A stretch of 64,000 bases of DNA from the NCBI GenBank assembly GCA_039831155.1, contig JBDONT010000043.1:1-64000 (forward strand), given 5' to 3'. Position numbers and translations under genes: made by a program. A model generated the notes under the pieces. It had not been told where the DNA came from. It ran no database searches and saw only the letters and a program-made list of their open reading frames with translations. The stretch comes from Nautiliaceae bacterium. Lineage in GTDB: Bacteria > Campylobacterota > Campylobacteria > Campylobacterales > Nautiliaceae. Numbering within the stretch: position 1 is the first letter of the stretch; the number at the start of each line of letters is the position of its first letter. Positions 16,004 through 18,948 of the stretch are shown piece after piece.

Positions 16004-16575
16004 TGCAAGAAATTGTAGATTTTATAGTTAATACCGTAGGAAGTTTGGGGTATGTGGGGATTTTTATTATGATGTTTTTGGAGAGCAGTTTTTTTCCTTT
16101 TCCCAGTGAAGTTGTAATGATACCGGCCGGGTATCTTGCAAGTAAAGGGGAGATGAATATTTTTTTGGTTATTATAAGTGGTGTTTTGGGTTCTGTAACG
16201 GGAGCCTGGTTTAATTATCTTATAGCTTATAGTGCCGGTAGGAGGATTGTTCTTAAATTCTTAAAAGCTAAGCATTTAGAAAGAATAGAAAAGTTTTTTG
16301 AAAAACACGGAGAGATATCGACTTTTAACGGAAGATTGATTCCGGGAATTAGGCAGTATATCTCTTTTCCGGCCGGTCTTGCTAAAATGGAGCCTTTTAA
16401 ATTTACTCTTTTTACGGCTTTGGGAGCCGGGATTTGGGTGGTTGTTTTAGCAATGCTGGGATTTTTTATAGGAGAAAACCAGGAGCTGATTCATAAATAT
16501 ATAAAAGAAATTACCGTTTTTACTATAGGCTTTTTAGCGATAATTACTTTTATATACATAAAAAGGAGGAGTTAA
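16003..16575 (+). CDS. DedA-family membrane protein
   Basis: [28 protein letters not shown]. Confidence 0.92.
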
Positions 16576-17057
16576 TCCTCCCATCTGCATCTTCTTCCAA
16601 ATCCACGTCCAAAACCTCTTTGAAGGCCTCTTCCTAAGCCTCTTTGGAAGTTTTGGTATCTTCTTCCAAAACCTCTTCTAAATTGAGGCTCAACGTTAGG
16701 AGATTCTAAAGACTCTAAAGTGTTCAGTGTTTCTTGGATGTCTTTTGTATTTGAAATTAAAGGTGTGATGCCTTCGGCAACTAGGTTTTTAACCATACTT
16801 TCTCCAAACTCTTCTGCTACCAAAGCATCAACCCCGGCTTCTGCCAATAATACAGGTACTATTCTTCCGGTACCAAGACCTCTTTGGTGTTGAGGTAGTG
16901 ATTTTAGGTTTATGTTTTCTTCTTTTATTGTTTCAATTATAGGGTTTTGGATATAGAATTTTTCGTTTGTATCGGTATCGATAATTAAAAACCCTTTTGC
17001 CAGTCCTATATGGTTTGCGATTGTTTTTTGATTGTTTGTCGGAAATGCTACTCTCAT
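16572..17057 (-). CDS. NifB/NifX (dinitrogenase FeMo-cofactor domain) family protein with an Arg/Gly-rich tail
   Basis: [16 protein letters not shown]-terminus, [11 protein letters not shown]; tail [23 protein letters not shown]. Confidence 0.75.
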
Positions 17058-17078
17058 TTTCCCCTCCTTAAAATTTTT

Positions 17079-17351
17079 TTATTTTAAAACCTCTATCGCT
17101 TTGCCGTTTAGCAAAGCATCTGCAATTTTTGCTCTTGCGTTATTTAGAATTCTTCCGAATGTCGGACGAGAGACTTGCATTTCAATTGCCGCCTCTTCGT
17201 GATAAAGTTTTTCTAAATCGGCAAGTCTTATAGCTTCAAGCTCATCGGGTGTTAGTGTTACGATATCCAGCATTATAGCCGGTACACTACAGGGCTTGAA
17301 GCATACGTTTTCGAAATTTCCCCTAATTCTTCTTCTTACTCTTCTTGGCAT
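17079..17351 (-). CDS. DUF134-family predicted DNA-binding protein
   Basis: MPRRVRRR..FKP, ELEAIRLADLE, AA..MQVSRPTF.RIL..AR.KIADAL..GKAI. Confidence 0.92.
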   Translation of the reverse strand: MPRRVRRRIRGNFENVCFKPCSVPAIMLDIVTLTPDELEAIRLADLEKLYHEEAAIEMQVSRPTFGRILNNARAKIADALLNGKAIEVLK

Positions 17352-17362
17352 TTAAGCTCCTT

Positions 17363-17409
17363 TGAACATATGTTCACTAAATTATACTTCTTTTTTGAGC
17401 ATATGTCAA
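17363..17409 (-). promoter_or_regulatory. Consensus sigma70 promoter of the DUF134 operon overlapped by two palindromic operators
   Basis: Minus strand TTGACA(17409-17404)-17 nt-TATAAT(17386-17381); TGAACATATGTTCA at 17363-17376 and TGAGCATATGTCAA at 17396-17409. Confidence 0.85.
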
Positions 17410-17495
17410 GATAAAAAAGAATTTTATATAAATTTTTCTTAAAAAAGTGATAATTTTTTGTTATACTTTAGCAAATTTTCATAAGGAGAATATGT

Positions 17496-18689
17496 ATGGG
17501 TAAAAGAGTTTTGGTTTTAGGTGGAGGATTTGGTGCACTTGAGAGTGCTATTTGGCTTAGAAAATACGGATTTGACGTAACGGTTGTAACAAATAGGGAT
17601 TATATGTATATATATCCTATTTCTATTTGGATTCCAACGGGTGAGTATTCTTTTGAAGATTGTACCATATCCTGGGAAGAGTTAAGAAAAGTTCACGGAT
17701 TTGAAGTAAAATATGATAAAGTGACTAAAATAGATATTAACGCTAAAAAAATAGTATGCGAAAAAGAGACTTTTAGTGATTTTGATTATCTTGTAATTGC
17801 CATAGGTGCCGATAAGGTAAAACATAAAGGAAGTGAAAATTTCTTATCTATTTGTGGTGCTCCCGAAGAGTCTTTAAAAATAAAAGAAAAACTTGACGAA
17901 CTTATTAAAAAAGGAGAAGGAAAACTTGCGTTTGGGTTTGGTGGTAATCCTAAAGACCCTAGTAATGTAAGAGGTGGTCCTGCTTTTGAAGTTATGTTTA
18001 ATGTTCATAATAAATTAAAAAAACTCGGTATTAGAAATAAGTTTGAAATTACCTTTTTTGCTCCTATGCCAAAACCGGGTGCCAGAATGGGTGAAAAGGC
18101 TTTAAAAGTTATGGATATGTGGTTTAATAAACTTGATATAAAACAAATCAAAGGAAAGAAAATCAAAGAGTTTGTAAGTGACGGTGTTATTTTTGAAGAC
18201 GATTCGAAACTTGAGAGTGATTTGACTATGTTTATTCCGGCCGGAAACGGACTGGAGATTTTTAAAGATAGTGGACTTCCTTTAAATGAAGCCGGGTTTA
18301 TTAAGATTAATGAGTATTGTGAAGTTATGCATAACTTTGATGAAACGAGTTCGGATAAGTTTCCTATTTTTGCCGTAGGAGATAGTGCTGCAATTGACGG
18401 ACCAGATTGGAGAGCGAAACAAGGACATTTAGCAGAAGTAATGGCAAAAGTTACGGCTTATAACATTAAAATGATGGAAGAAGGAAAAGAATCCAGAAAA
18501 GAGTATATCTCTCATATTAATATTTTATGTCTTATGGATAGTGGAGATGGTGGAGCTTTTGTTTATAGAGACAATAAAAAAGCGATGCTTATACCTTTAC
18601 CTATTATAGGGCATTGGATGAAAAAAGGTTGGGGGTGGTATTTTAAAAATTCTAAACTAAATAAAATTCCTAGAATACCGGGAATGTAA
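17496..18689 (+). CDS. Sulfide:quinone oxidoreductase-like FAD-dependent oxidoreductase
   Basis: GGGFG FAD motif, DYLVIAIG, SICG, FAVGD and C-terminal CLMDSG (SQR CxxDxG) motif. Confidence 0.8.
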   Translation: MGKRVLVLGGGFGALESAIWLRKYGFDVTVVTNRDYMYIYPISIWIPTGEYSFEDCTISWEELRKVHGFEVKYDKVTKIDINAKKIVCEKETFSDFDYLVIAIGADKVKHKGSENFLSICGAPEESLKIKEKLDELIKKGEGKLAFGFGGNPKDPSNVRGGPAFEVMFNVHNKLKKLGIRNKFEITFFAPMPKPGARMGEKALKVMDMWFNKLDIKQIKGKKIKEFVSDGVIFEDDSKLESDLTMFIPAGNGLEIFKDSGLPLNEAGFIKINEYCEVMHNFDETSSDKFPIFAVGDSAAIDGPDWRAKQGHLAEVMAKVTAYNIKMMEEGKESRKEYISHINILCLMDSGDGGAFVYRDNKKAMLIPLPIIGHWMKKGWGWYFKNSKLNKIPRIPGM

Positions 18690-18740: not shown

Positions 18741-18769
18741 TTGACAAAGAATAAAAATTTTTATACAAT
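18741..18769 (+). promoter_or_regulatory. Sigma70 promoter of the tRNA operon
   Basis: TTGACA-17 nt-TACAAT with A-rich upstream tract. Confidence 0.85.
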
Positions 18770-18789
18770 TTCATTACCAAATGACGCGA

Positions 18790-18864
18790 TGGGCTGTCGC
18801 CAAGTGGTAAGGCAGCGGACTTTGACTCCGTCATTCGGAGGTTCGAATCCTCCCAGCCCAGCCA
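18790..18864 (+). tRNA. tRNA-Gln(UUG)
   Basis: Cloverleaf TGGGCTG/CAGCCCA, anticodon loop CTTTGAC, TTCGAAT, encoded CCA. Confidence 0.97.
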
Positions 18865-18870
18865 TTTTGA

Positions 18871-18948
<78 letters not shown>

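Follow-up and report, generated by a model that had tools for sequence, protein, structure and literature searches.

In the 64,000-nucleotide stretch of DNA analysed here (the window; positions 1 to 64,000 of contig JBDONT010000043.1, Nautiliaceae bacterium assembly GCA_039831155.1), a gene for a small protein of the DUF134 family (UPF0251, COG1342, PF02001) is preceded by a sigma-70-type promoter overlapped by two near-identical palindromes, the candidate operators O1 (TGAACATATGTTCA) and O2 (TGAGCATATGTCAA, reading TTGACATATGCTCA on the gene strand). The best explanation overall is that DUF134 probably serves as a local repressor of its own two-gene operon, in which the second gene encodes an IssA-like protein with a NifX fold. 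Equally, a site of the TGARCATATGYTCA type is conserved as a putative cis-element in the promoters of DUF134 genes from many phyla. No function has been assigned to the widespread DUF134/COG1342 family, and neither an operator nor a function under any of its four names is described in the literature searched, which had subscription journals largely outside its range. If the reading holds, the family would gain a consensus for its operator and a role as repressor, together with a candidate site for sensing and a tie to iron-sulfur storage in sulfur-reducing vent bacteria. While autoregulated helix-turn-helix (HTH) repressors are already a known kind, the DUF134 family as such a repressor would be new.

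The promoter of the operon is composed of TTGACA (17404–17409, minus strand), a 17-nt spacer and TATAAT (17381–17386, minus strand), followed on the gene strand by four bases, O1, the ribosome-binding site (RBS) AAGGAG, five bases and the ATG of DUF134. Both palindromes share the core ACATATGT. The left half of O2, which is centred near −28, is the −35 hexamer TTGACA itself, and O1, centred near +4, lies between the −10 element and the RBS and spans the predicted transcription start, with 33 bp from centre to centre. A first-pass annotation of the window, made by a model from the letters alone, had described this layout with its perfect promoter, a perfect palindrome over the predicted start up to the RBS and a second copy on the −35 hexamer at this very distance, and all of it is borne out, including every coordinate.

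From the window alone the palindrome is not convincing, with three matches at no more than two mismatches versus 0.74 expected and with four of 100 shuffles reaching three, but it is convincing at the scale of the genome. The genome of origin (1.53 Mb, 32% G+C, 43 contigs) contains the exact palindrome a single time. In a genome scan, as had been suggested by the first-pass annotation, a weight matrix built from 40 sites of other Nautiliaceae, with the sites of the genome itself excluded, ranks O1 first and O2 second, the next match reaching 16.7 bits and the peaks in three shuffled genomes 15.1, 18.5 and 15.3 bits. A wider regulon in the same genome was considered and rejected, matches at or below 16.7 bits lying within the range of the shuffles, and a match upstream of two other NifX-fold genes (C22:21935) was equally discarded as it sits inside an open reading frame (ORF). 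These two genes stand in tandem on contig C22 (22014–22753), one of them with a His/Glu-rich stretch, and are without a cationic tail or a convincing operator. A LexA (Cheo-box) reading of the motif as GAAC-N4-GTTC, of which the genome contains five, the other four with different cores, was dropped because the motif follows DUF134 across phyla. As a side observation, the hexamer CATATG is found 284 times in the 1.53 Mb versus about 500 times expected by a hand estimate from base composition, a shortfall that might reflect an NdeI-type restriction system.

Within Nautiliaceae the arrangement is largely preserved. DUF134, single copy in its own genome, occurs in 26 of the 41 related genomes searched (its own, G000, included) and in 21 of 24 other genomes within the family, and both operators are kept in 20 of 23 non-redundant Nautiliaceae loci, in the order TTGACATATGYTCA, TATAAT, TGARCATATGYTCA and RBS. 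The spacing between the operators is 34 bp in 16 of these 20 loci, 35 bp in two, 36 bp in one and 33 bp here. In the alignment of the 20 loci the mean column identity is 0.90 at −61 to −8 versus 0.36 at −120 to −62, with 0.97 for O2 and 0.93 for O1, and the DUF134 proteins encoded there are 59–93% identical. This block of predicted promoter and operators is a classical phylogenetic footprint. In two further loci, L007 and L008, a single site is merged with TATAAT, TTGACATATGTTATAAT, and DUF134 has no NifX-fold gene downstream, with RecR following in L008; partner gene and O1 are thus missing together in both. Locus L017 has no site upstream of DUF134. A pattern search with at most one mismatch in 26 Nautiliaceae genomes recovered 21 distinct sites, 15 of them at a DUF134 promoter, versus four with the reversed pattern. 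Among the six sites elsewhere three were inspected, and because one of these overlaps RBS and ATG and two read as coding sequence, the regulon in Nautiliaceae appears to be limited to the DUF134 operon itself.

Beyond the family, one genome per species was scanned with an alignment of 17 DUF134 proteins and the best 80 of 517 confirmed relatives were taken; removal of eight duplicates and two unusable loci left 96 non-redundant loci for the site test. The motif RCATATGY is present within −110 to +3 of the DUF134 start in 63 of the 96 loci versus 29 of 2946 control windows of equal length from the same loci, and the loci with the motif represent, by their titles, at least ten phylum-level groups. 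Enrichment upstream of DUF134 genes across taxa, which the first-pass annotation had proposed as a check, is hence observed. DUF134 is the only constant neighbour of the site, the genes upstream and downstream varying widely. The gene after DUF134 could be called in 63 loci; it has the Nitro_FeMo-Co domain in 38 of them, in eight there are MinD-type ATPases with ferredoxin inserts (including Sulfurovum, Sulfurospirillum and one Phycisphaerae locus), and ArsP_2, SLAC1/TehA, MFS, NifU and DUF5320 genes are found in this place at others.

The site falls within the predicted core promoter in each of the lineages, a geometry of repression rather than activation, although its position in the promoter differs when the loci are inspected by eye. 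In other Campylobacterota, TGAACATATGTTCG fills the spacer between −35 and −10 and CGAACATATGTKCA follows the −10 element, the two being 22–23 bp apart. A single TTATGAGCATATGCTCATAA occupies the 17-nt spacer and supplies the −10 element in Acidobacteriota, Ignavibacteria, Syntrophorhabdaceae, Thermodesulfovibrionales and others, and Lentisphaerota, Elusimicrobia, Eubacteriales and KSB1 have ATTAGCATATGCTAAT as their site. Five loci of Syntrophorhabdaceae, Thermodesulfovibrionales and delta-proteobacterial bins (L054, L057, L060, L077, L099) have the ATG about 5 nt after TATAAT and no RBS, which suggests leaderless mRNAs with the −10 element as part of the operator. About 100 bp upstream of DUF134 in two Sulfurimonas loci (L043, L045), a second operator pair with its own TTGACT/TATAAT is found in opposite direction, facing a small ORF without Pfam match, and DUF134 may control both directions there.

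This geometry bears on the possibility that DUF134 binds as an activator or dual regulator, by recruitment of RNA polymerase at the −35 site or by activation of the divergently oriented gene, in the window a gene for an SQR-like flavoprotein. O2 overlaps the −35 hexamer as class II activator sites do, and at three Nautiliaceae loci (L007, L012, L019) the TG-extended −10 element of the divergent gene is located, by eye, within about 10 bp of O2, so that one protein could serve both directions and joint control of both would be more likely at these loci. An activator is improbable, however, for a promoter that matches the consensus in 12 of 12 positions with a 17-nt spacer and needs none, with O1 covering the transcription start. 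Equally, the single site of other phyla sits in a spacer of optimal length (17 nt, by eye), unlike the long spacers of MerR-type activation, and O2 is located around −70 relative to the likely start of the SQR-like gene.

The DUF134 protein combines an Arg-rich N-terminal arm, the motif C17-F-K-P-C21 and a sigma-region-4-type HTH with the recognition helix SRPTFGRIL. It belongs to PF02001 with 67.3 bits versus a cut-off of 27 (residues 4–86, E 1.9e-18), and besides DUF134 the Pfam scan gave only weak similarity to sigma region 4 (Sigma70_r4_2, 22 versus a cut-off of 25.7 bits). The AlphaFold model has a mean pLDDT of 80, exceeding 90 for residues 31–80, and superposes on −35-bound sigma region 4 and on the DeoR domain with an rmsd of 0.6–0.8 Å over 40–48 residues. 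The best structural match is region 4 of sigma-70/ECF factors on the −35 element (for example 2h27; 0.6–0.7 Å over 46–48 residues), and the left half of O2, the sigma-70 −35 hexamer TTGACA, is one letter away from the half-site TGAACA. Unlike sigma factors, DUF134 is without sigma region 2 or 3 and is a predicted dimer on a palindrome.

A profile of the 17 DUF134 proteins retrieved two structures of DeoR from the PDB, 7bhy (E 2e-6) and 8r7y (E 3.5e-5), with an ISRPT-SR motif in common. The HTH of DeoR, a SorC family member of the subclass with sigma-70-region-4-type HTH, is homologous to that of DUF134 (0.8 Å over 40 residues) and binds DNA. According to the accessible part of the DeoR report, the Bacillus subtilis protein makes base-specific contacts in 5′-TTGAACA-3′, its operator at dra-nupC-pdp is ATTGAACAAAATTTCAATTACCAATTTACATATGTTCAA and the right half-operator contains ACATATGTTCAA (PMC11229326); the right end of this operator nearly equals the Nautiliaceae operator. 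As far as this source can be compared, the half-site letters are the same, DeoR and, as proposed, DUF134 are repressors with promoter-overlapping sites, and DeoR binds two half-operators as a tetramer, which the paired O1 and O2 would equally allow for DUF134. The half-sites are, however, 4 bp apart around CATATG for DUF134 versus about 6 bp for DeoR, and the linked genes concern metal clusters in the one case and nucleoside catabolism in the other. Furthermore, the 90-residue DUF134 protein has the Arg-rich, Cys-bearing arm in place of the SorC sugar-phosphate effector domain of about 250 residues that DeoR possesses; because this domain was not found, DUF134 is considered to share only the DNA-binding module and not to be a SorC member.

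The recognition helix and the half-sites vary together. Proteins with the helix SRQTFGN are found with half-sites TTAGCAT or TTGGCAT, position 2 being T in all 12 half-sites from the six loci with a convincing site, whereas with Arg at the respective place of the helix this position is G in 114 of 146 half-sites. The half-site variants TGCACAT are seen only with SRTTF[SA]R proteins, and an SRPTISR group confined to one Nautiliaceae genus has right halves TTGACAT or TTAACAT. Each of these groups of helix and half-site may be one clade, in which case the co-variation would represent few events, not many. A relation between G66 or S66 of the recognition helix and A or G at half-site position 4 within Nautiliaceae was also tried and gave no clean pattern. 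Sites, position, conservation and co-variation with the protein can all be read from the sequence or its comparison.

The palindrome calls for a dimer and a homodimer was therefore looked for. ESMFold2 gave the homodimer a score of 0.68 versus 0.00 for the best of three controls, a value attained by 20 of 30 proteins whose solved structures are pairs of one chain and by one of 23 solved as single chains, with at least 97% contact agreement between runs and a partner pLDDT of at least 79. The modelled interface comprises helix 1 (residues 38–48), the end of helix 3 (73–81) and residues 16–22, with Cys17 facing Cys21′ of the other subunit.

Because DUF134 is the constant neighbour of the site, the recognition helix co-varies with the half-sites, the HTH is homologous to that of DeoR and the fold model agrees, we infer that DUF134 quite probably binds these sites and represses its own operon. 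Autorepression through a TGARCATATGYTCA-type site, as put forward in the first-pass annotation, is thus supported by conservation across phyla, helix co-variation, the DeoR half-site and promoter geometry. That the palindromes are instead bound by another transcription factor of the ArsR/SmtB, Fur or Rrf2 type encoded elsewhere, with DUF134 merely regulated, might be considered since TGAACA-type inverted repeats resemble some ArsR/SmtB operators and ArsB, ArsP_2 and TehA-like transporters are among the neighbours in relatives. Yet the site follows DUF134 through those phylum-level groups with differing neighbours, half-site changes track the recognition helix of DUF134, a homologous domain reads TTGAACA and these loci have no other regulator gene in common, which makes such a factor still less probable than an activator role. 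Least probable of all is a strong promoter with an RNA element, in which O1 forms a 5′-UTR hairpin by the RBS; the transcript probably includes most of O1, which borders on the RBS, and the −35 and −10 elements account for part of the conserved block. However, the core of O1 recurs in O2, ahead of the transcription start, and other phyla keep the site entirely within the spacer, which is not transcribed, often at genes that appear leaderless (TATAAT, 5 nt, ATG). Moreover, little stability would be expected of a 4–5-bp stem closed by 4 nt (an estimate without folding), and the co-variation with the protein helix would stay unexplained.

Several points weigh against repression by DUF134 as outlined. 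All evidence for binding and repression is comparative or modelled. The first 30 residues of the DUF134 model have low confidence (pLDDT 52–64), a Foldseek search against the PDB with this small domain gave no match at E ≤0.001 (E ≥0.07), and the homodimer, which was modelled on an alignment made for this analysis, may pass owing to likeness to solved HTH dimers. The best 80 loci are all at least 47% identical to the query and represent one part of the DUF134 family, while the nominal Fisher p of 4e-83 for the enrichment of RCATATGY is overstated, the genomes being related. Furthermore, 33 of the 96 loci are without exact RCATATGY, many of them, by eye, with one-letter variants or with DUF134 internal in an operon. 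Finally, the cysteines of CFKPC are absent from DUF134 proteins of other phyla, which have Cys elsewhere in the N-terminal arm or none, and a Cys-based signal could for this reason not be a family-wide rule.

In the proposed mechanism of repression by DUF134, a homodimer would set two sigma-region-4-type HTHs on the TGAAC half-sites of the CATATG-centred 14-bp palindrome. One dimer on O2 would compete with region 4 of sigma-70 for the −35 hexamer, and a second dimer on O1, over the start, would block open-complex formation or promoter escape; at 33–34 bp, about three helical turns, the two dimers could touch. Because the promoter is otherwise a perfect consensus, high expression would be expected once the repressor leaves. 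The trigger for release might act on the N-terminal arm, in which the Cys17 and Cys21 residues of the two subunits would form a four-thiol site for an Fe-S species, for iron with sulfide or for a thiophilic metal(loid), and release could lead to production of the IssA-like protein, which might store or carry iron-sulfur. The locus offers a minimal test case with one regulator, one target gene, two near-identical operators, two cysteines and a consensus promoter that Escherichia coli should read.

A metal, Fe-S or sulfur signal, possibly sensed through CFKPC, had been put forward in the first-pass annotation. The idea of a signal at Cys17 and Cys21 was drawn here from the invariance of the motif, the modelled contact and the nature of the neighbouring genes. 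C17, K19, P20 and C21 are invariant in 17 proteins of Nautiliaceae/Hippea (Campylobacterota/Hippea), and in the wider sample both cysteines are present in all Campylobacterota/Hippea loci except L022 and L026. TehA/SLAC1, ArsB, ArsP_2 or chromate transporter genes stand beside or behind DUF134 in several Campylobacterota (L005, L012, L013, L018, L022, L036, L047, L063 and L070); these transporters of toxic or sulfur oxyanions hint that the Cys-bearing clade may be linked to metalloids or sulfur anions. The Cys-based Fe-S, sulfide or metalloid signal that we infer from motif, model and gene neighbourhood is a doubtful though conceivable part of the reading.

The ArsR/SmtB and Rrf2 (IscR/NsrR) repressors are small dimeric HTH proteins that bind a palindrome on their own promoter and have thiols at the dimer interface or close to it as the proposed sensor. 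The likeness of DUF134 to them is functional only, with a winged helix on their side versus the sigma-region-4-type fold. In its most far-reaching form, which we regard as unlikely and more speculative than a Cys-based signal as such, DUF134, as a free-standing sigma-region-4 module, would represent a new class of thiol-based sensor-repressors, with a dimer on the −35 hexamer competing with sigma-70, an intersubunit four-Cys site at which binding of an Fe-S cluster, of iron-sulfide or of a thiophilic metalloid frees the protein from DNA, and control over an IssA-type thioferrate store in vent Campylobacterota. With lineage-specific sensor arms, the same pair of protein and operator would in this view govern operons throughout bacteria and archaea, among them those of ORP-like type and those for transport of arsenic and of tellurite or sulfite.

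The partner gene had been annotated as NifB/NifX, of which the NifX fold stood, with a PF02579 (Nitro_FeMo-Co) domain at residues 10–114 (E 1.8e-11), the domain that also characterizes IssA (IPR003731/PF02579). The specific assignment did not, the protein scoring 29.3 bits versus a cut-off of 112 with the NCBIfam model nifX and 14.7 versus 343.65 with nifB. Its NifX-fold domain is acidic (pI 5.0) and without Cys, and the tail of 46 residues, with nine Gly, 11 Arg, seven aromatic residues (Phe/Trp/Tyr), one Cys and a pI of 11.8, has the composition of an IssA tail. A cationic tail of the GRGFGY type is present in 15 of 16 other Nautiliaceae partners (pI 9.8–11.9), the sixteenth, in L035, having an acidic stub of 23 residues (pI 4.6). 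The partner would thus be better called IssA-like than NifB/NifX. Between strains the tail is of variable length, a DNA contig of run X3 having in-frame insertions of 12 and 18 nt (at 16602 and 16663) within the Gly/Arg repeats, and among species it ranges from 46 to 89 residues.

IssA of Pyrococcus furiosus (PF2025) is described, in the accessible part of the report, as a thioferrate iron-sulfur storage protein which is induced when sulfur and iron are abundant and possesses a probably unstructured tail of 70 residues with 15 Gly, seven cationic and 14 aromatic residues, a pI of 10.7 and a single Cys (PMC5524996). As far as this text allows the comparison, the partner has in common with IssA the domain, an unstructured-looking cationic Gly/aromatic tail with a single Cys and a sulfur-rich vent host, but it is bacterial, has a shorter tail and no proline-rich linker, and is likened to IssA by domain and tail composition. 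The same part of the report names no regulator for IssA (PMC5524996); if true, DUF134 would be the first known regulator of IssA-type iron-sulfur storage.

A second system for comparison is the orp cluster of Desulfovibrio vulgaris Hildenborough, which, according to the parts of the reports available, brings together NifX-fold proteins (Orp8 and MrpORP, the latter in its C-terminal domain) and MinD-type ATPases bearing ferredoxin inserts, with operons that depend on sigma-54, the enhancer-binding protein OrpR and IHF (PMC6345978, PMC8359166, PMC3897727). The gene set of this cluster is also present after DUF134 in the eight loci mentioned above. In D. vulgaris, however, orp is driven by sigma-54 with no DUF134 operator in these accounts, while of this gene set the window contains only the NifX-fold gene. 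An ORP-type cluster of NifX-fold protein and MinD-type ATPases with ferredoxin inserts was not found at the locus, which has VTT and MFS membrane proteins as neighbours. The regulation of IssA-type storage and of ORP-type metal-cluster proteins in anaerobes outside Desulfovibrio might be testable with the present operon.

Table 1. Features of the DUF134 operon and of the divergent gene in the window
Feature	Position	Strand	Observation
DUF134 gene, 90 aa	17079..17351	−	ATG at 17349–17351; PF02001 match
IssA-like gene, 161 aa	16572..17057	−	PF02579 match; second gene of the DUF134 operon
Candidate operator O1, TGAACATATGTTCA	17363..17376	strand-neutral	Perfect 14-bp palindrome, unique in genome, 21.2 bits
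Candidate operator O2, TGAGCATATGTCAA; gene strand TTGACATATGCTCA	17396..17409	strand-neutral	20.7 bits
Sigma-70-type promoter of the DUF134 operon, TTGACA-17-TATAAT	17381..17409	−	12/12 in promoter scan
RBS AAGGAG of the DUF134 gene	17357..17362	−	Directly abuts O1
Terminator-like hairpin with T-run, end of the IssA-like gene	16564..16582	−	Sequence scan
Divergent SQR-family flavoprotein gene, 397 aa	17496..18689	+	Pyr_redox_2 and PDB matches; module membership not supported
Promoter-like site of the SQR-like gene, TTAAAA-17-TATACT, TG-extended −10	17439..17467	+	9/12 matches, TG present

The divergent SQR-like gene starts, as the first-pass annotation had it, less than 90 bp away, with 87 bp between O2 and its ATG. 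The protein has the SQR fold, with a Pyr_redox_2 domain (E 1.5e-17) and full-length likeness to solved SQRs, the best PDB matches being Aquifex SQR 3hyv (E 2.3e-25, residues 1–385) and Acidianus 3h8i (E 1.9e-21). Cys120 and Cys345 align with Cys124 and Cys347 of Aquifex SQR, in which we take Cys156 and Cys347 to be the redox-active cysteines and Cys156 to be catalytic, but Arg is found at the position aligned with Cys156 of 3hyv and with the Cys of CEGP in 3h8i, and the full set of redox cysteines is thus incomplete. The NCBIfam model SQR_III gave 73.6 bits versus a cut-off of 525. An influence of DUF134 on this gene, also contemplated in the first-pass annotation, is not supported, as the gene is the divergent neighbour in five of 17 Nautiliaceae loci examined, and its promoter-like site begins 30 bp beyond O2 and is overlapped neither by O1 nor by O2. 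The divergent neighbours at other loci include a TehA-like channel (three loci), ArsB, adenylate kinase and RpiB.

The terminator-like hairpin bounds the two-gene operon of DUF134 and the IssA-like gene. Metatranscriptome contigs from two libraries of one vent sample are identical to 16603–16859, 16917–17148, 16784–17148 and 17133–17283, one of them spanning the junction between the two genes, and contigs of the same libraries are equally identical over most of the SQR-like gene. These matches are compatible with expression of the operon, although DNA may be present in such libraries. The region 17313–17514 is left uncovered by the assembled contigs of the RNA runs X1 and X2, a missing cover that proves nothing. 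Downstream of the SQR-like gene, a sigma-70-type promoter with 11 of 12 matches (18741–18769) precedes tRNA-Gln (18790–18864) and tRNA-Met (18871–18947), and among the RNA-library contigs over the window this region (18741–18947) has by far the highest depth.

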